A stretch of 41,294 nt of DNA from a virus. Its lineage: Duplodnaviria; Heunggongvirae; Uroviricota; Caudoviricetes. The notes beneath the pieces were generated by a model that saw only the letters and a list, made by a program, of their open reading frames with translations, was not told where the DNA came from and searched no databases. Made by a program: the position numbers and the translations under genes. This document shows positions 1-41,294 of the stretch, one piece after another. How positions within the stretch are numbered: position 1 is the first letter of the stretch; the number at the start of each line of letters is the position of its first letter. The DNA is taken from the IMG/VR virus record IMGVR_UViG_645951847_000024; one strand, written 5' to 3'.

Positions 1-3000
1 TTGCTCACCTTTACGGATTCGCGTCAGGGTACCGCTCGCATTTCAGCCCGCTTACAGCAGGATGCCGATAAAGCGACGTTGCGAGCTCTTTGTTACCAGG
101 AGCTGGCAAATATTACAGAGCCTTCAGCAAAACTCAGCCCGGCACACTGTGCACTGTTAGAGAAAGTTATTAGCCAGTTTTCTGTCCTCCCTTTAAAAAA
201 TTCCATCGACGCGCTGAAAAAAGCGATGGCTGCGAATGAGGAGCTTAGCCCGACGGACATTCAGGCACTTAAAATTATTGAGCCGATGGTGAGTTCCTTA
301 AGCACGGAGCATGCTGAAGCGATGCAAATACTTCAGGCTAACTCTGGCAATCAGCAGAAGAAAACCATGTCATGGCAAACGCTGTCTGAACAGCTGGTTG
401 GCAGTGTGGACCTTGCCGATAGAATGAGAGGCAGTTTTAAAGAATTGTCTGGGCTTGATCTTACTAAACAACAGTTTGCAGATTTTTGTTTATACAGCGA
501 GTTTGGTCGCCGCCCTAAAAATGCCTGGACCCTCGAAAGTCTGGGTCTGGTAGCCATTCACTATCCATTCATTGATAAAGTTACAACCTGCCCGCAGGAC
601 TGGAAGACATTATTACCCGATCCCGATAAGCAATTAGCGGAATGGCGTAATTTATTGAAGATTACTCTTGATTTCTTTATCCGTGAAAACAGTGCCGTTT
701 TTTACGAAAACGAGCAATACCCTCGCTGGATGGGGGCACGTTTCCCGGTAAAAATGCTCCAGGGGCCAGATAAAAAAAACAAAGGGCAGAAACGTGATCA
801 ACTTTGGCCACAAATACGCGATCGCCATTATAACCGGGTCATTAAGCTATTAATCGCAGTCTTTCCGGCAATACAACCTGAGCAGGCTCACTGGAAATCG
901 TTAGTTAACCACTTAATGATTGAGGTCTGGGATGCAATTCGACCCTGCTTACGTCAGTTTGAGTCGGGTTATCAGCTGGATATTAAACAACAAGCTGAAT
1001 TTTACAGTCCAAAGCAAGTGTGGCGTTGCCCCTATACTCGACGTGCGTTAGACGTCACGTTGCTGGGATACTCTCCGTATTTGCCGGGTAGCAAAGAAAT
1101 TGCACCTGAAAAAGCAGTGTTGATTGAAATGCCTGAGCTTCCTGTACGTCACTGGCGTTTGTCTGGTGGTGGAGAAATCGCCCGAGAAGAACGTCTGGAG
1201 TGGCTGGAAAGTAATGCGCTGATTCAACATGCCCGCGAGGAAGGATTATGGTCTACTCGCAGCGACCGACTGGCCCTGAAAGATAGCTGGTATCGTCTGG
1301 AGGAACACTCTGCGCAGAGAACGCCTGAGCAGAACCAGTTTAATGAAAAACAATTTAAGTCAGGCAAAGTTAATGTGCTGAACTGTTCCACGACCATGGA
1401 GATGGGGGTGGATATTGGTGGTATGAGTTTGGTGGCAATGAACAACGTTCCTCCAGCGCCGGCAAATTATTTGCAACGTGCAGGTCGCGCGGGGCGTCGT
1501 GGAGAGAGTGCATCTGCTGCCATTACGTTATGTAAAAACACGGCGCATGGAATGGAGGTATTCAAAGACCCCCTCTGGGCGTTCAACACTACTGCCAGTG
1601 CGCCACGGGTTCGTTTTGGGAGCAGTAGTATTGTTCAACGACATGTTAATGCCCTGGTTTTAGGTCTGTTTTTACGAGCTGAAGTTCCTGATGCGACAAA
1701 ACTGAGTTGCAAATGGTTCTTTGAAGGTGATGAGAGCCAGTGTCTTCGTTTTCTCCATTGGTTAAATCACCAGGCCGATCAGCTGGCGGATAAACTTAAA
1801 CGCCTTACTCAGGGAACCGTACTGATGTCATTGACGGCAACCCAGCTCTTGACCCGCACACAAGCAATGATGCAGCAGGTTGATATCCGCTGGAGAAGCC
1901 AACTTGCGATACTGTTGGAAAATATCGAAGCGTTGAAGGCGGATAACAGCGCGTGGGAAGAAACACCAGCAGGTAAAGCCATCGCTTATCAGCTTCGTGA
2001 TTATCGCGGTGCATATCTGTTTTCTAAACTCATTAGTGAAGCGTTCCTGCCGGGGCATGGTTTCCCGGTTGGCGTAGTCAATTTCAATTATCTGACGGCA
2101 GATGAGCTGGAAAAACGTCGCGCAATAAAAGCCACTCAGGCTGACCCTAATGAAGGGGGAGAAAGCTTTTCTCGTCGTATTGAAAAATTGCCCAGCCGTG
2201 ATTTGCCTACAGCATTACGCGAGTATGCGCCTGGTGCAGATGTGGTATTGGGCGGAAAAGTATATCGTTCCTCGGGCATTATGCTTGGCAAGGTGCTTGC
2301 CAGCGGGCAGGAGCTGTCAGGCGATCATCATATTCCGTGGTTCTGGCATTGCCGTAAATGTGGTGCGGGGGCAACCAGTACTACCCATCCTGTCGAATGT
2401 AGTCACTGCAAAGCGGATATACAGCAACTTGATGTGAAGCGTTATTTACAGCCTGTTGGTTTTGCGACAGATATTCGTTATCAGGCACATAATGATGTAT
2501 CCATGCCTGCACAACTTCCCTGGAAAGATCCACGTGTTCTTGTACCGTCTTCGGTGTGGGTTTCTTTACCCGATGCTGGGCTAGGACGTTACCGTTTTAG
2601 CCATAGTGGGGAATTGTTCCACTTCAGTGAAGGGGAATTTGGGCACGGCTACGCAATTTGCCTCTCATGTGGTCGGGCAGAATCTCAAACTCAACCCCAG
2701 CGTACCCCTGAAAATCTAAAGAACCCAGAGAGGGAAAATACGCATTACCTGTTGCGAGGGGGCAGTAACGATCGTCAGGGGAGCAATAAATTGTGCCACG
2801 GTCATGTGCATAAAGATCTGTGGTTGGGATATAGCAGTCGTACAGATATGGTTGAGCTGCAACTCAATGATGATAATGGCCTGTTGATCCGTGATGAGGT
2901 TGCCGCGCGTTCCCTTGCGGTCGCTTTGCGTGAAGGGTTAGCGCATAAATTGGGTATCGAAAATACTGAGCTGGGCGTGACGACGCAGCAAGCGCGCGAT

Positions 3001-3279
3001 ATCAATGGCTATACCGGATATTCCATCTTCATTTACGACAATAATGCGGGTGGTGCAGGTTATGCAGTGCAATTGATCGACCATTGGGCTGATGTCTTTA
3101 ATTACGCCAGAAAATTGCTCGATTGCAGTTGCGATAAATTCTGTCACCACTGCTTGCTCAGCTACGACAGTCAGCATTATGTCAACAGATTAGATCGTCA
3201 CCATGCATTAACCCTGCTTACCAATGTACGGTTGCAGCGACTTAACCTCGCGCCAGATATAGCGCGGCGATTTTTTTGA
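1..3279 (+). CDS. C-terminal part (5' end cut by window) of a large SF2 helicase with a Cys-rich DUF1998-like zinc-ribbon C-terminal domain; probably host-encoded
   Basis: Helicase C-domain motifs TMEMGVDIGG and QRAGRAGRRG in the translation; C-terminal Cys clusters (CRKCGAG...CSHC, CLSCG, CSCDKFCHHC). ORF starts at window position 1, so truncated. Family assignment from memory only. Confidence 0.6.
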   Translation: MLTFTDSRQGTARISARLQQDADKATLRALCYQELANITEPSAKLSPAHCALLEKVISQFSVLPLKNSIDALKKAMAANEELSPTDIQALKIIEPMVSSLSTEHAEAMQILQANSGNQQKKTMSWQTLSEQLVGSVDLADRMRGSFKELSGLDLTKQQFADFCLYSEFGRRPKNAWTLESLGLVAIHYPFIDKVTTCPQDWKTLLPDPDKQLAEWRNLLKITLDFFIRENSAVFYENEQYPRWMGARFPVKMLQGPDKKNKGQKRDQLWPQIRDRHYNRVIKLLIAVFPAIQPEQAHWKSLVNHLMIEVWDAIRPCLRQFESGYQLDIKQQAEFYSPKQVWRCPYTRRALDVTLLGYSPYLPGSKEIAPEKAVLIEMPELPVRHWRLSGGGEIAREERLEWLESNALIQHAREEGLWSTRSDRLALKDSWYRLEEHSAQRTPEQNQFNEKQFKSGKVNVLNCSTTMEMGVDIGGMSLVAMNNVPPAPANYLQRAGRAGRRGESASAAITLCKNTAHGMEVFKDPLWAFNTTASAPRVRFGSSSIVQRHVNALVLGLFLRAEVPDATKLSCKWFFEGDESQCLRFLHWLNHQADQLADKLKRLTQGTVLMSLTATQLLTRTQAMMQQVDIRWRSQLAILLENIEALKADNSAWEETPAGKAIAYQLRDYRGAYLFSKLISEAFLPGHGFPVGVVNFNYLTADELEKRRAIKATQADPNEGGESFSRRIEKLPSRDLPTALREYAPGADVVLGGKVYRSSGIMLGKVLASGQELSGDHHIPWFWHCRKCGAGATSTTHPVECSHCKADIQQLDVKRYLQPVGFATDIRYQAHNDVSMPAQLPWKDPRVLVPSSVWVSLPDAGLGRYRFSHSGELFHFSEGEFGHGYAICLSCGRAESQTQPQRTPENLKNPERENTHYLLRGGSNDRQGSNKLCHGHVHKDLWLGYSSRTDMVELQLNDDNGLLIRDEVAARSLAVALREGLAHKLGIENTELGVTTQQARDINGYTGYSIFIYDNNAGGAGYAVQLIDHWADVFNYARKLLDCSCDKFCHHCLLSYDSQHYVNRLDRHHALTLLTNVRLQRLNLAPDIARRFF

Positions 3280-3390
3280 TACCGATTTGCATTTCATTTG
3301 ATACCGCTGAAAAACGCCGATACGCAACTTATTTGATACTAAATCGGCGCTTTTCTTTTGAGTTTTAGAATGAGTTTTTAAGCGCTCATT
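3280..3390. mobile_element. Candidate prophage right-end region (transposase-binding repeats?); exact terminus not resolved
   Basis: Three TTTGATAC(C/T) motifs at about 3273, 3298 and 3343, and a 13-bp inverted repeat (GAAAAACGCCGAT / ATCGGCGCTTTTC, about 3309-3357) between the host stop codon and the mom stop. No match to the canonical Mu terminal sequence. Confidence 0.3.
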
Positions 3391-4123
3391 CACTCTCTTT
3401 CAAACCAGTTTTAACTGTTTGTGGTTTTGGGTAAGGCTGGACTTTGAATAGCTTTGTGTTGAGGCGTTTTCTGGCCCTCTTGTTCAGAAACCGGATGTAA
3501 CGAAACTGTCGGAACTTATGAACACTGGCTCTGTCAATATTAGCCCTCAGATGTTCACCTCGTTGTCCGCCTCGTTTAATGGCATTCCTGCAAATCTCGT
3601 GATACCACTCGCCATCAAGTTCATAGAATATTGATTCATGGCTGCCTACATAATCAAAATTGCTTGCCTGATACACGACACCAAGACAGCCACAACGCTC
3701 ATCTGCAAACGACTGAACCCACTGTACCTGCGGATAAAGCTGCCTGATTAGCTTGAGCGCGTAACTGATTGCCCTTGATTCGGAGTTTCTCGGCATACAG
3801 TCATGCAGCCATAGCCGGTTAAGCTCCATATATTCTCGGTTCTGCGTACCCGTTACGACGCGTGCACCACTGTTTGGGTTAAGGGCGTAACCCCATTGCA
3901 TTACGCCAACAAGTTCCCGTTCTGAAAATATGCCCAGATGAAGGTAGGAGTTATTTACGAAACGGTGGCTGTAATGTTTATTGACGATGACCAGTCTGGC
4001 CAGCCAGCAACTTATTGTCTCAACCCGCAACTCACGGGAGCCATAACCAACGATATTGTCGTTATAGCGAATAAGTTCAGGCGTGCTGATGATTCGGGAT
4101 GTGACTTGCTTTCTGTTCCCCAC
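3386..4123 (-). CDS. mom: Mom-like DNA modification protein (anti-restriction)
   Basis: Last gene before the prophage right end, directly downstream of and overlapping a clear Com homologue, as in Mu com-mom. Identity by synteny only; Mom sequence not recalled. Confidence 0.55.
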
Positions 4124-5469: not shown

Positions 5470-5514
5470 CTCCCGCCAGCCATATCATGACCGGCGGGAT
5501 TTTTTTATTCTGTT
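5470..5514 (+). terminator. GC-rich hairpin followed by T7 run (plus-strand terminator-like), overlapping the esterase stop codon
   Basis: TCCCGCC (5471-5477) pairs with GGCGGGA (5493-5499), then TTTTTTTATT. On the minus strand the same hairpin is not followed by a T-run. Confidence 0.4.
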
Positions 5515-7544
5515 ACCGCTTTTTTCACTTCCACCACAATGCTGTCAATCAGCACCGGGTAAGTTGCATTTTTTGTGATATCCGTTACGCGGAGTTTGTC
5601 CACCGGGAAAGTTCCTACTGGTGACTGCGTCAGGGTAAACGCGGCACCATCCTGACCATCAATAACCGGAATAACCTGAAGGCTGTTATTTCCTGCAAAA
5701 CGGAAGGCCAGCGTATGCCATTCATTATCAAATGCACCAAAGGTTCCCAGTTTCTGGTTATTTGTTGCCACTTTTGCATTGTGGTACATCACATTCAGGT
5801 CTTTTGCGTCTGTCTGGATGTAGAACGATGCCAGCAGATTATTCCCTGCATCCCCTGTCAGGGTGACACCCTGCGGCAGAGAGGAAACCGGCCAGTAAAG
5901 CCCCATGACATACTGGTTTGCCACCAGGTCGCCAGGTACTTTAAAACGACAACTGATTAAACCACCATTTTTCAGCAGTTCAGCACCAGTACCGGCATCA
6001 TGATCCAGATACCAAGATGATTTACCTGTTTCCTTGGTCAGTTTCATTGCCTTACCACCTGTGCCTCCTGCATCACTGATAATTTCAGCTTTACCGCCAG
6101 CCGGCTCCCAGCCCTGGGCTTTCAGATTTCCTTCTGACTCACTGACACGATAAGACAGCAGTGTTGTGGTTACTGCTTCAGTTTCTGAAGGTGACGGCAC
6201 TGGTGCTTCAGTTTCAGAAGATGGAACATCGGCTTTTACTGTGGTTCGCCCCGCATGAGTCAGAACTGCCGTGGCCAGACGGTCGGAAATAATCCCACGA
6301 CGTGCCCATGAACTGAAATGGCTGGCCCGGTCCGCAGATGTCCAGGTGGCGGCACTGTTACGCCACGTTGAGCCGTAATAACCAATGGATTCAATATCCG
6401 GGTCTTCTGCCGGATTGTTGGTGGGTACATTCGCGTCATTTTCATCTGTCATTAATGGAACGAAATGAATGTTTTTATCTGTTTTGTTTTTGTAGCCGCC
6501 ATAGATTGCCTGGTATGCCGGTTCATTTTTCTGTTTCCAGAAATACGTGGTATCGCCACAAATCCACGGAACGCCAGCAGCACTGCCACCGGTACACTGT
6601 TCCGCCTGTTCAGCCAGGTCTGCGCGGAATTTTTCCACCATCGCCAGAAACAGCGCGGAATGCTCCGTCGGCTTCGCATCAATATCAAACTCGCCCTGCA
6701 TCCACACCACAGCAAGCAGGCGGTTTTTCGGGTTCTTCGCCAGTGCCGCTTTTGTCCGGCTGATTAAGTCCTTATACAGCGGCTTATCCACACCCCAGCG
6801 GGCTGAGTCCTCTGAAGCACCCGTGCTGTCACTGTACGTGCCGTCAGCACCCGCCGTGAATGCAGAACCACCACGGCAGCAGGGAACCAGCAGAATCCCC
6901 GCATCTGCCGGAATAAACGGCAGCAGTTTTTTGGCAATGTGAAGCCCCTGACCCACGGTGCCATATTGCCCTTTAGCCACATCCGCTTTCGGGTGATTTT
7001 TTCCACTCATATCCTGCACATCATGCAGACAGTGGTCGGCCAGAATGATGTCGTTATACTGACAGGCTTTACCTCCCGGCGTGACTGTACTGCGACGGGC
7101 TAACTGCATAATACGCGGTTCGGGGCGGTCATATGTCTCCGGCAGTGGCAGACCTTCACCGTAAGCCATACCGTTTGACTGACCAGCAAGAACCACCACG
7201 TAATACCAGGAAGGGGAGCTGGAAGCAGTTTCATTTCCTGACGGACGGGTATGTGTTTCAGCATTATCCCAGTCTGACGGTTCAGCAGTACCGGCAACAT
7301 CAGCACTTAACGGAATGACCGCACCAATACCCGCTCCGGTAATTTCCACACTCGGATCACCGGATACTGGCCTTACCCACAGGCAATCCCGTGTATTAAA
7401 ACTGATGAGACAGTCAGCAAATGTCATTCCTCCTTTTGTTTCGGCCGGAGGAAAGGGAGCCTCAAGAAATGCCGCTGTACCACCGGAAACTTTAACAGTA
7501 AAGTTTCCGGGCATTGATGATAGTTGAACCCATTTGGACGTCAT
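5505..7544 (-). CDS. Predicted sialate O-acetylesterase-like cargo protein (SGNH/SASA-type esterase with extra N- and C-terminal domains), NanS-p-like
   Basis: 679 aa; VVLAGQSNGMAYGEG resembles the GQSN catalytic-Ser block of sialic-acid-specific acetylesterases; sits between gin and com-mom, where Mu has no gene. Family from memory. Confidence 0.6.
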   Translation of the reverse strand: MTSKWVQLSSMPGNFTVKVSGGTAAFLEAPFPPAETKGGMTFADCLISFNTRDCLWVRPVSGDPSVEITGAGIGAVIPLSADVAGTAEPSDWDNAETHTRPSGNETASSSPSWYYVVVLAGQSNGMAYGEGLPLPETYDRPEPRIMQLARRSTVTPGGKACQYNDIILADHCLHDVQDMSGKNHPKADVAKGQYGTVGQGLHIAKKLLPFIPADAGILLVPCCRGGSAFTAGADGTYSDSTGASEDSARWGVDKPLYKDLISRTKAALAKNPKNRLLAVVWMQGEFDIDAKPTEHSALFLAMVEKFRADLAEQAEQCTGGSAAGVPWICGDTTYFWKQKNEPAYQAIYGGYKNKTDKNIHFVPLMTDENDANVPTNNPAEDPDIESIGYYGSTWRNSAATWTSADRASHFSSWARRGIISDRLATAVLTHAGRTTVKADVPSSETEAPVPSPSETEAVTTTLLSYRVSESEGNLKAQGWEPAGGKAEIISDAGGTGGKAMKLTKETGKSSWYLDHDAGTGAELLKNGGLISCRFKVPGDLVANQYVMGLYWPVSSLPQGVTLTGDAGNNLLASFYIQTDAKDLNVMYHNAKVATNNQKLGTFGAFDNEWHTLAFRFAGNNSLQVIPVIDGQDGAAFTLTQSPVGTFPVDKLRVTDITKNATYPVLIDSIVVEVKKAVTE

Positions 7545-37975: not shown

Positions 37976-38203
37976 TTAGCTGACTTGTTTCGCACCAACA
38001 GAACGGCATATTCCGCTGTAAACGTCTGTCGCACCTTCGCGATCAAGTCCGGCAGATATCACCATTCGTGTGCGGTCATTAAATTCAAAAAGTAAATCGC
38101 CACATTCTTTATTTTCGGCCAGTGAAATCACCTTCACGTTATCGAAATTAACCAGGTAAAAGCGTCCGTAAATATCAGGAATATTAAATACCGCCATAAT
38201 CAC
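37976..38203 (-). CDS. Small protein immediately after B; Kil-like by position and size only
   Basis: 75 aa directly downstream of the B gene, where Mu encodes the 74-aa Kil; no sequence recall to confirm. Confidence 0.35.
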   Translation of the reverse strand: MIMAVFNIPDIYGRFYLVNFDNVKVISLAENKECGDLLFEFNDRTRMVISAGLDREGATDVYSGICRSVGAKQVS

Positions 38204-39132
38204 ACCTGTGAGAGTAATTCAGGGTTGGTATAAACCTCTTTAAAGGCCGCATTAATATGTTTTTCTGTCAGCGCCGCGCCTTCACCGCTGGCGGTGAGCC
38301 ACGCCTGGTTAAGCGTATGTGTCAGAACGCGTAACGCTCCCGGCTTTTCAGCGATAGCCTGCATGACGGCCAGCTCGGCCTCACCACTGATCCCCCACGC
38401 CCTGGCAATGGCCAGCACATCCGCCTTTTTGGCCTTGCGAAGTTGTTTTGTACGGGCAAGACGGCTGAACAGGCGCGATAAATCATCAAAGGCGCGGCGT
38501 CCACCTTTAAACAATCCGCGCGGGTTACCAATAAGCACCATCCCGATCCCCGTGGCGTCCTGAATTGCCCGGAGTTGCTCCAGACCGTCAATACCCAGAT
38601 GATCCGCCTCATCCACAATCACCAGTCCACGCGTTCCCATCAGGCGACGGCGGATGGCGCGGGATAATGCCCCTTTGTTCGCGCGGGTGTAATCAATCCC
38701 CAGCGCATCGGCCAGCTCCAGCAGACACTCCGTGACGCTGGAGTGCGCGGGTGACAGGGTGATCATCCAGGTGTTTGGTTGCTCCTGGCAGTAATTACGG
38801 GCAGTGGCCGTTTTACCCACACCCGGTACGCCCACAATAACGTTAATACAGCCCATCAGACGAACCGCCTGAAACAGTGCGCGCAGCTCCTGGACTGTCT
38901 GCGTTTCCACAAACTGCGGCGGTTCCGGCAGTGCGCTTTGTTTATTCCAGTTTTCATACCAGGAACGCAGGGAAGCAGCCACAGCGGCGTTATCGCCTTT
39001 ATATTTCCCCTTGCGGAAAGCCGATAATGTGCCGTCGGAAATTCCCGCCTCTCTGGCGATGGCATACTGCGTCAGTACGCCGCCATCAATAAGTTCATCA
39101 ATGGTCTTGATTACATCGTTAATATCAGTCAT
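38200..39132 (-). CDS. B: Transposition ATPase B (MuB-like AAA+ target DNA activator)
   Basis: 310 aa; N-terminal HTH (VLTQYAIAREAGISDGTLS), Walker A GVPGVGKT, Walker B LVIVDEADHL; follows the transposase gene. Confidence 0.9.
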   Translation of the reverse strand: MTDINDVIKTIDELIDGGVLTQYAIAREAGISDGTLSAFRKGKYKGDNAAVAASLRSWYENWNKQSALPEPPQFVETQTVQELRALFQAVRLMGCINVIVGVPGVGKTATARNYCQEQPNTWMITLSPAHSSVTECLLELADALGIDYTRANKGALSRAIRRRLMGTRGLVIVDEADHLGIDGLEQLRAIQDATGIGMVLIGNPRGLFKGGRRAFDDLSRLFSRLARTKQLRKAKKADVLAIARAWGISGEAELAVMQAIAEKPGALRVLTHTLNQAWLTASGEGAALTEKHINAAFKEVYTNPELLSQV

Positions 39133-39203: not shown

Positions 39204-41294
39204 TCAGGCCAGCGGGTCATTTTCTTTTAATTTCGCTTCCAGCAACTGCAATCCCCGCTGGAAATTACGCTCGTATTCTTCATCAGGTTCATCGTCAGCG
39301 ACCGGTTGCTGAACGGTCACCGTATTACCCACAGGGCGGTATATGTTTTCCAGCCAGGGCTCCTGCGGCTTGTGCTCCAGCACGTTGACAACCTCATCCT
39401 CGGCATCACGGATTTTTTCCTCTGCGCGTTTACGCATGCCTTTAAGGCGTTGCTGCTGTTTGTAGTATTCCGCGCTGACCGGGAAGGCTTCGCGTTTATT
39501 GCCGTCCCATACCGCCTCGCAAATCACGCTGCCATCCAGGCGACGTACGGTAATTCGTTCGGCATCATGAATGTCATAGCTGATAAGCACCTTACGGCCA
39601 TGCTCGTCACGCAGCTCGGGCGCGTAGTAAATATTATTCAGCCAGCGTATTTCACAGCGTCTTACAGGGCGTTCCACCATCGGCCGGAACATATCCCGCA
39701 GCTCAACATCGGACAGCCATTCAATTTCCGTGTCCTCTTCCGCCAGGCGTTTTTTTCTGAACTCCGCCGGGCTGTAATGCTTGCCGTTCGGCTTCACCGG
39801 TAATTCATCGTGCGGCCGGTTGTTGTACCACTCAACACCGTCACGAATGGCATCAATCAGTTCAGACCAGGACGGTAAATCACGCATCGCTGACTGCTGC
39901 CGGGCGTTCAGCCGTTTGCCCTGTTGCAGGGCAGTAAATGCCGAGCGTAAATCGCGGTTGGTTTTGCGTAACGTCTCGCGATCTGCACCTTTCCCGAAAT
40001 AGGTGCGGTATTTACGGGCTATGCGCATCGGTAATGTGCGGTTAAGCCGTTCGATAATGCCTCGTCCCTGCGGATTACCGGCAATCCCGGTCGGGTGATT
40101 AATCCCCAGTCGCGGCAGTATCCCCACAACCTCCTTATCCAGGATGTCGGCGGTTTCCCCGGAGCCGTTATCCGAGTAATACAGAAACGGTTTGCCGTGA
40201 TGGCGAATGCCGTGCTGTATGGCACCGGCTACGGCGAAAACATTTTCAGCCAGGTCAAGGCTCCAGCCCACCACAAAGCGCGTGCCACCGTCGATAACAA
40301 AGGTCACTTCCGGTGCAAATGGCCGACCGTGAACCGGGTGTGCGCATTTCAGCTTCATGCCGTGACCGTCACCAATCCAGACATAATTCACCGGCATTCT
40401 GGACCAGTCGCGGCGCGTGAATCCCTCAAGCTGGCGGTATTCACTGCCGGTCACCCGGCCTTTTTGTTTCACCACTTCCGGCAGTTTCTTCATTGCGCGG
40501 CGAATGGTGTCATAAGACGGCATGATATCGAGCATATAAGGCTCATCAGCGTGCCGGTGCTGCCATTCAGCGACAAAATCCTCGTAAGCCTCGGTCATTG
40601 GTCGGCCGTTTGACTGGCGATACTGCGCCAGAAATTCGGGCAGCCAGTTAATATCTTCGGCTTTTATTTCCTGGCGCTTACCCGGTGCCAGTAAAAGCAG
40701 GCGTTCAGCGGCGTTCTGCGCCTTGTTAAAGGCCGCAATCCAGCGTTTCAGCGTGATTTCACTTAACGCGCGGCTGTTTCCCTTTTTGGCGTTCGCCGTC
40801 TCAACCATTGCCACAATGCGCTCGTCCAGCTGCGAACGTGCCAGGTTGTCAACGATAAACCGGATAGCCTTCGCACAGCTGAAACCAGGTTGTTGCGCGA
40901 CTTTCAGAACTTCGCTGACGATCGCGATTCGTGCATCAGCCACCTGGCGCTGGTTTTCAGTCAGGGCATTAAGGCGTTCGACCATCAGTTGTGGTGATCC
41001 GCGATATGCCTCCACCGCATCAACCACGGCAGGCGAGCGTCTGGCCTTTGTCACCACTGGAGCCGGTGATTCATCGACTTTTTGAGTCATCAGTTGCAGG
41101 GCGTAGCGTTCACGTAATGCCTGCTGCGTCACTTCAGGTAAACAGTCGATGCTGTATTCAGTTGCTTTAGAGCCTGAGCGACGACGGGAACAACAGCTTT
41201 TCCCTTGTACGTAACGTTGTAATGCCTGGCGAATACCTTTTGTTGTAGCAGGCATTCCGGGCGCGCCAATCAGTTCTTTTGCAATGACATACAT
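39204..41294 (-). CDS. A: DDE transposase A (MuA-like); start at or near window end
   Basis: 696 aa upstream of B; large multi-domain protein of the size and position of Mu A. Confidence 0.85.
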   Translation of the reverse strand: MYVIAKELIGAPGMPATTKGIRQALQRYVQGKSCCSRRRSGSKATEYSIDCLPEVTQQALRERYALQLMTQKVDESPAPVVTKARRSPAVVDAVEAYRGSPQLMVERLNALTENQRQVADARIAIVSEVLKVAQQPGFSCAKAIRFIVDNLARSQLDERIVAMVETANAKKGNSRALSEITLKRWIAAFNKAQNAAERLLLLAPGKRQEIKAEDINWLPEFLAQYRQSNGRPMTEAYEDFVAEWQHRHADEPYMLDIMPSYDTIRRAMKKLPEVVKQKGRVTGSEYRQLEGFTRRDWSRMPVNYVWIGDGHGMKLKCAHPVHGRPFAPEVTFVIDGGTRFVVGWSLDLAENVFAVAGAIQHGIRHHGKPFLYYSDNGSGETADILDKEVVGILPRLGINHPTGIAGNPQGRGIIERLNRTLPMRIARKYRTYFGKGADRETLRKTNRDLRSAFTALQQGKRLNARQQSAMRDLPSWSELIDAIRDGVEWYNNRPHDELPVKPNGKHYSPAEFRKKRLAEEDTEIEWLSDVELRDMFRPMVERPVRRCEIRWLNNIYYAPELRDEHGRKVLISYDIHDAERITVRRLDGSVICEAVWDGNKREAFPVSAEYYKQQQRLKGMRKRAEEKIRDAEDEVVNVLEHKPQEPWLENIYRPVGNTVTVQQPVADDEPDEEYERNFQRGLQLLEAKLKENDPLA

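Follow-up and report, generated by a model that had tools for sequence, protein, structure and literature searches.

What becomes of a phage defense gene when a transposable phage lands in it? This question is raised by the first 3,279 nucleotides (nt) of IMG/VR virus record IMGVR_UViG_645951847_000024, a stretch of 41,294 nt (here called the window) in which a large helicase reading frame is followed by a Mu-like prophage. Our analysis indicates that window 1-3257 is almost certainly part of druE, the YprA/MrfA-like helicase gene of type III-A Druantia, with a Mu-type insertion in the gene. Druantia III, the O-island 172 that carries it, and the Mu-like prophage have all been described already, and no new kind of system is involved. 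Only one thing is new: a truncation of natural, phage-made origin at the boundary between the zinc-binding MZB domain and the C-terminal PLD-like domains of DruE, which mirrors an engineered construct.

On the + strand, frame 1 runs open from the first base of the window to the TGA at 3277-3279 (1,092 codons), and the open reading frame (ORF) scan found no second long ORF overlapping the druE fragment in window 1-3279. Megablast searches of 5,426 complete Escherichia coli genomes found druE in 541 of them, with 100% identity to the fragment in many O157:H7 strains. Aligned with druE of E. coli O157:H7 PV15-279 (6,315 nt, 2,104 codons; comparison locus L001:10084-16398), window 1-3257 showed 0 mismatches over 3,257 nt, window base 1 corresponding to codon 640; the visible 1,085 codons carry no further sequence change relative to O157:H7 druE. 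By BLASTP, 1,084 of 1,086 residues were identical to intact DruE, the two differences being the first codon, called Met by the tool, and the junction codon. The original prediction had suggested a Druantia DruE-like or MrfA-like defense helicase, and profile and structure searches agree with it. The DruE type III model of PADLOC (PDLC00037) gave the top match at 1,156 bits (E = 0), covering profile positions 638-1684 of 2055, and the DruE1, DruE2, and DruE4 models scored far below it. A PDB sequence search returned 9tu7, deposited as 'DEAD/DEAH box helicase', at 2,538 bits across all 1,085 residues; entries 9tu7-9tuc carry this sequence, and residue numbers of the O157:H7 protein are those of the E. 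coli protein (EcDruE) for which cryo-electron microscopy structures have been described (bioRxiv 10.64898/2026.05.12.722862). A housekeeping placement was not borne out: no helicase family was matched at family level in NCBIfam, where helicase cut-offs amount to several hundred bits and all window matches were sub-threshold (the best match reached 59 bits, where 874 are required).

In genomes with the identical gene, druE is preceded by a gene for DruH (PADLOC DruH3, 2,552 bits). Farther upstream in the intact locus are zorA2, zorB2, and zorE (Zorya II) and a restriction endonuclease specific for phosphorothioated DNA, and downstream of intact druE are genes for a DrmD-like helicase, a large methyltransferase, and another YprA-like helicase (ARMADA-type genes). 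The Zorya II/Druantia III/ARMADA II island is O-island 172 of enterohemorrhagic E. coli, dissected by deletion analysis in EDL933 (bioRxiv 10.1101/2025.09.22.677730) and also studied in ATCC 8739 (PMC12458937). Within it, druH and druE form a two-gene type III-A system, druE encoding a 3'-to-5' superfamily 2 (SF2) DNA helicase. Judged by its sequence, the host locus appears to be the O-island 172 defense island of an O157:H7-like strain, and druH is expected at least about 1.9 kb before the window begins. The earlier suggestion that the rest of the locus lies upstream of the window would hold for DruH and Zorya II but not for the 3' fifth of druE and ARMADA II, which are expected beyond the prophage.

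The features of the fragment that the following argument needs are these:

1-3257, + strand: internal fragment of druE, codons 640-1724 and the first two bases of codon 1725 (O157:H7 alignment, PADLOC, PDB).
121-357, + strand: four-helix dimerization subdomain PD/DD, DruE P680-Q758, window residues 41-119 (published EcDruE numbering, transferred).
1288-1503, + strand: C-terminal half of RecA2 with motifs V and VI (Pfam Helicase_C).
2917-3156, + strand: MZB (DUF1998) zinc-binding domain (Pfam PF09369).
3258-3279, + strand: phage-derived tail of the hybrid ORF, comprising the third base of codon 1725 (E to D), IARRFF, and TGA (alignment with intact druE and three other insertions).

Both the SF2 motifs behind a long insertion and the Cys-rich zinc domain noted in the original prediction were recovered. 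RecA2 starts with LLTFTDSRQ at window residues 1-9, and about 430 residues later follow motif V (STTMEMGVDIG, residues 463-473, nt 1387-1419) and motif VI (QRAGRAGRRG, residues 492-501, nt 1474-1503), both read from the translation and both contained in the Pfam Helicase_C match (residues 430-501, E = 8e-13). The MZB domain (formerly DUF1998) matches the Cys-rich residues 973-1052 (E = 1.9e-12), and its CSC...CHHC cluster at window residues 1042-1051 includes C1681, C1683, C1687, and C1690 of DruE (window residues 1042, 1044, 1048, and 1051). The PD/DD subdomain is an insert in the Cap/DBD domain inside RecA2 (bioRxiv 10.64898/2026.05.12.722862); transfer of the EcDruE numbering was checked via TGSGKT 117, DEAH 251, and H1415/H1574/H1576. 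The RecA1 motifs TGSGKT 117 and DEAH 251 were read only in the identical full-length O157:H7 gene, since their codons lie upstream of the window. DruE of EDL933, ATCC 8739, and ECOR19 is nucleotide-identical over codons 640-1724 and has the same domains (PD/DD, RecA2, eWH, OB/Zn, and MZB). MrfA/YprA of Bacillus subtilis (PDB 6znp/6znq/6zns) has RecA2 motifs V and VI and the MZB/DUF1998 zinc module in common with the fragment; however, it is a 751-residue DNA repair helicase without the insertions of about 770 residues, DruH, or PLD domains, and it matches window residues 441-561 only (E = 1e-10).

We then delineated where the host gene ends. Megablast identity to 520 E. coli genomes breaks off near window 3260, and alignment with the intact gene places the end of druE identity at window 3257, inside codon 1725. 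The right terminus of the phage begins exactly at window 3258. Its first base converts codon 1725 from GAA (Glu) to GAT (Asp), and six phage codons (IARRFF) followed by the phage TGA at 3277-3279 close the druE frame. The hybrid ORF therefore encodes DruE 1-1724 plus DIARRFF (roughly estimated at about 196 kDa), its stop codon being phage DNA, and about 1,137 nt of druE (codons 1726-2104, 379 residues) are missing from the window. The same right terminus, TATAGCGCGGCGATTTTTTTGATACC, borders the prophage in strains 2014C-3011, RM13322, and 113, each time at another site: its flank is a terB-like gene, a head gene of a lambdoid prophage, and an intergenic site close to fimbrial genes (folK lying past the opposite end of the prophage), respectively. 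Because the intact gene runs on and the terminus found at 3258 recurs with different flanks, the prophage lies inside druE and not beside it. A prophage does follow the helicase ORF, as the original prediction had it, but not at the 3' end of the gene. One practical caution follows for annotation: a phage-supplied stop makes a truncated defense gene appear complete.

The prophage is expected to have pushed codons 1726-2104 of druE and the ARMADA II genes about 39 kb away, past its far end. At the far junction, ...GGTTACA should be followed by a short duplication (for example CAGA, or 4 to 5 bp of (C)CAGA) and next by druE ATATCAGTACTTCGG... The druE/prophage junction had no match by megablast in the 5,426 complete E. 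coli genomes and no exact match in exact-match scans of IMG/VR, GTDB representative genomes, or JGI metagenomes. The truncated druE allele is new within the collections searched, and its junction being in none of them makes it a private allele of the source strain. Compared with the intact locus, about 39 kb of prophage separates this allele from the rest of the island.

A terminator-like hairpin spans the junction on the + strand (window 3248-3279), pairing host TCGCGC with phage GCGCGG across CAGATATA (hairpin at 3248-3267) and followed by CGATTTTTTT. It ends just upstream of the phage-supplied stop, and its stem is weak and may be due to chance. If it terminated transcription, mRNAs of the truncated gene would have no stop codon.

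The insertion point is a linker, with the MZB zinc domain before it and the two C-terminal PLD-like domains after it. Residues 1726-2104, equivalent to 9tu7 positions 1730-2108 and absent from the window, had no Pfam match; in full-length DruE, no PLD family was found in Pfam at E values up to 0.01, and a PDB sequence search with the 379 residues returned DruE alone. The PLD assignment of the missing region rests on published structures, which place two PLD-like domains after MZB (10.64898/2026.05.12.722862, 10.64898/2026.05.13.724758, 10.64898/2026.05.13.724313, and PMC13192584). Subtype III-A is recognized by two C-terminal PLD-like domains; the hybrid ORF lacks both (about residues 1726-2104), a loss that is secondary and insertion-made. 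Residues 640-1724 should keep the dimerization subdomain, the second half of RecA2, eWH, OB/Zn, and MZB, and the whole helicase core would be kept if the unseen 5' 639 codons (RecA1 and dZBD) are intact.

We lean slightly toward the following explanation of the locus as a whole, in which the insertion of a Mu-type phage in druE leaves a functional truncated protein. A Mu-type phage of the Sp18/Phi804-3 kind almost certainly transposed into codon 1725 of 2104, which would leave the DruE helicase core and put the PLD-coding remainder past the prophage. The truncated DruE would still be an active helicase and would support DruH-dependent defense against at least some phages, while the PLD contribution, proposed in the literature to be nuclease activity, higher-order assembly, or synergy with Zorya II or ARMADA II, would be lost. 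Taken separately, the claim that truncated DruE keeps helicase activity and at least partial defense seems to us an evenly balanced one, based on the constructs and relatives described below.

The closest parallel is engineered. EDL933 DruE 1-1723 binds single-stranded DNA (ssDNA), hydrolyzes ATP, and unwinds DNA, and when supplied to EDL933 lacking druE it restored defense against Bas26; truncations that go further fail, as do mutants in the MZB cysteines, C1681, C1683, C1687, and C1690 being reported as essential in EDL933 (bioRxiv 10.64898/2026.05.13.724758; a Wahl/Antelmann/Beisel-type study). In the literature, anti-phage activity dependent on the DruE ATPase and on DruH is described for intact DruE and for the 1-1723 construct. 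The prophage cut, at residue 1724, is one residue from the end of that construct. In a second study, EcDruE defense was unaffected by deletion of the second or of both PLD-like domains, which lack the HxK(x)4D motif (bioRxiv 10.64898/2026.05.12.722862); likewise, our pattern search found H.K....D nowhere in full-length DruE. One and the same protein is cut in the window allele and in these constructs, the cut positions differing by no more than one residue; however, the truncation in the window is natural, chromosomal, and phage-made and carries a DIARRFF tail and a phage 3' untranslated region. Retained function is favored because both studies that removed the PLD domains used E. coli DruE itself.

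Natural relatives point the same way in part. We searched 1.84 billion cluster representatives and compared the 150 best with full-length DruE by BLASTP. Thirteen of the 150 clusters have a complete N terminus and stop at positions aligned to DruE 1705-1722, and another 4, also with a complete N terminus, stop just past the first PLD region (aligned at about 1863-1876). Thus, with 13 plus 4 clusters ending naturally at PLD boundaries, PLD-less architectures occur in nature. Such PLD-less DruE relatives, Druantia III-B among them, end just after MZB, but they are only about 36 to 41% identical and evolved without PLD, whereas the window allele is a III-A protein secondarily truncated.

Several observations weigh against retained function, and most of them bear on the most serious alternative, namely that the insertion is a knock-out: destruction of phage DNA would depend on the C-terminal PLD nuclease of DruE, what is left of the gene would be a pseudogene remnant, and the lysogen would be without the Druantia III layer and any synergy with Zorya II or ARMADA II. 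In DruE of Pseudomonas aeruginosa (PaDruE), the PLD-pocket mutations D1740A, D1917A, and R1918A abolish defense, and D1740A also abolishes ssDNA degradation in vitro (10.64898/2026.05.13.724313, Jinek group); a DRY triplet that is the sequence counterpart of mutated PaDruE residues lies at E. coli DruE 1947-1949, in the missing part. ECOR19 DruE has been described as a helicase-nuclease that cleaves DNA, with one inactive and one active PLD domain, and its R1258A pocket mutant loses stand-alone defense, from which the authors infer that DNA cleavage is needed (PMC13192584). Moreover, both PLD regions are retained in 127 of the 150 clusters, which argues for selection on them. Loss of druE is tolerated, because the gene is also found disrupted in nature: IS3-family (IS1203-like) insertions interrupt druE in strains CEC13002 and C325, and protein P0002 is an 1,136-residue truncated allele that is 99% identical to about residue 1129 and then ends in a foreign tail, VIRLEINDRG. 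Tests of the engineered truncations, for their part, used plasmid-borne constructs and, for the most part, one phage only. In the window allele itself, the 7-residue foreign tail, mRNA stability, and the weak junction hairpin could lower expression, and the 5' 639 druE codons, druH, and the promoter, all outside the window, could carry other defects. Lastly, the second junction and the target-site duplication lie beyond the window.

Nonetheless, two independent groups removed both PLD domains from the E. coli protein, one of them cutting at 1723, and found defense intact. PaDruE is a distant orthologue that was tested against T2, R1258 sits in the retained part (window residue 619), so that R1258A would not be a direct measure of PLD loss, and PLD-less relatives exist naturally. 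On this evidence, a knock-out is a real possibility, but one that we hold to be somewhat doubtful. Among four 2026 preprints there is no agreement about the PLD domains of DruE, taken by some to be an essential nuclease and by others to be dispensable; the source strain is a natural chromosomal test case for their role, including the proposed synergy with Zorya II or ARMADA II.

A further idea, which we consider improbable, is that the position of the insertion is non-random: either the lysogen survived thanks to a cut that left a working PLD-less DruE, a natural conversion (III-A to III-B-like) then kept by selection, or removal of the PLD domains was itself selected. In a speculative form of the latter, full-length Druantia III would act against replicative transposition of the Mu type by attacking its forked, ssDNA-containing intermediates. 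If PLD removal was selected, the phage disarmed or re-tuned a defense system by landing in it. Druantia III papers searched for these terms contained no mention of Mu-type or temperate phages.

An assembly chimera, with the junction an artifact of a repeated prophage, is very unlikely. The absence of the junction from all the collections scanned and the presence of several Mu-like prophage copies in some genomes would suit it; however, the break falls on the exact first base of the phage terminus, as at the three other, real insertion sites, and collapse of a repeat would be expected to join inside the repeat, not at its terminal base beside unique host DNA. We rejected it on the former ground. 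A housekeeping role is just as hard to credit. Newer RefSeq (PGAP) annotation names the protein 'motility-regulating DEAH-box RNA helicase', and some RefSeq records of the identical gene bear that name, which may mislead. Deletion of druE in EDL933 had no effect on fliC transcript or motility (10.64898/2026.05.13.724758), and deletion and complementation studies show phage defense (bioRxiv 10.64898/2026.05.13.724758; bioRxiv 10.1101/2025.09.22.677730). Together with the location in a defense island and NCBIfam housekeeping helicase scores far under their cut-offs, these phenotypes led us to reject that role. Finally, that the helicase gene is complete at its 3' end, with the prophage merely in the adjoining intergenic region, has in its favor an in-frame stop that closes the ORF right before recognizable phage genes, but it is refuted and practically untenable, as the gene runs 379 codons longer in 519 E. 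coli genomes, the PADLOC profile is covered to 1684 of 2055 only, and the conserved phage terminus supplies the final 22 nt of the ORF, stop codon included.

We further characterized the element beyond the junction, whose features are as follows:

3258-41294, - strand for most genes: Sp18/Phi804-3-like Mu-type transposable prophage, running off the window (identity to O157:H7 prophages, PHROGs).
3258-3355, no strand assigned: right (mom-side) prophage terminus with three direct repeats and a hairpin (comparison of insertions, repeat search).
3386-4123, - strand: mom, Mom-like DNA modification protein, convergent with druE (PHROG 1384, E = 1e-83; RefSeq 'protein mom' for the identical gene).
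38200-39132, - strand: MuB-like transposition ATPase (PHROG 296, E = 8e-110).
39204-41294, - strand: MuA-like transposase (PHROG 310, E = 1e-212).

PHROGs matches in the element comprise Mom, invertase, tape measure, sheath, major head, portal, terminase, MuB, and MuA, and PHROG 125 is, with 310, 296, and 1384, among the matches that support a Mu-like gene set. Identical genes in RefSeq are named protein mom, Com, recombinase, and tail fiber, and the invertase is Gin-type. The layout is that of Mu, with MuA and MuB toward the left end and mom/com, the invertase, and tail-fiber genes toward the right end. G+C content is 46 to 50% across the druE fragment versus 55 to 60% in the core of the element. 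The prophage is 100% identical to prophages at varied positions in O157:H7 and other E. coli; such copies, of the Sp18 (Sakai) and Phi804-3 (FRIK804) kind, occur in many O157:H7 genomes, with the druE insertion in none of the collections searched. An identical right terminus at four different flanks points to transposition rather than site-specific integration.

Within the right terminus, three direct repeats ending TTTGATAC are located at 3267-3282, 3289-3304, and 3324-3339, spaced by 22 and 35 nt; they are likely transposase-binding sites like R1-R3 of phage Mu, although this assignment is putative. A hairpin (3309-3321/3343-3355) lies downstream of mom. Phage Mu has termini of the form 5'-TG...CA-3' and a canonical 5-bp target duplication. 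The right terminus here starts with TA, not the TG of Mu; the left end of this type of prophage ends ...TTACA, closing with CA, and beyond the window it is expected to read ...CACCTGGTTACA. In the two other insertions for which both flanks were available (n = 2), 4 bp (TGCG and GAAT) are common to both flanks, versus the 5 bp of Mu. With the distance taken from strain 2014C-3011, the left end is expected about 1.27 kb beyond window base 41294. Sp18 of O157:H7 Sakai has been predicted to be intact (PMC2669165), and Sp18/Phi804-3 Mu-like phages occupy strain-specific sites, disrupting genes such as sorM or Shiga toxin (Stx) prophages (PMC7430833); sequence deposits exist of copies of this type inserted into Stx prophages.

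Two further observations concern druE in other strains. In the cattle O157:H7 strains MB9-1, SS TX 313-1, F1 E4, 139, 134, 141, and OkiPb01687, druE is matched over 6,314 nt, not 6,315, which suggests a 1-nt indel and possibly a frameshift in an otherwise identical gene. druE is also present on E. coli plasmids of 65 to 100 kb (17 places, about 98% identity, some truncated); mobility of the Druantia III module thus extends beyond O-island 172. As for the prophage, a gene for a 679-residue DUF6645 protein (window 5505-7544, minus strand) lies between com/mom and the gin invertase. It is cargo absent from phage Mu itself. The Stx-converting phage genes to which it is 78 to 81% identical in DNA sequence carry the annotation yjhS-like 9-O-acetyl-N-acetylneuraminic acid deacetylase or carbohydrate-binding protein.

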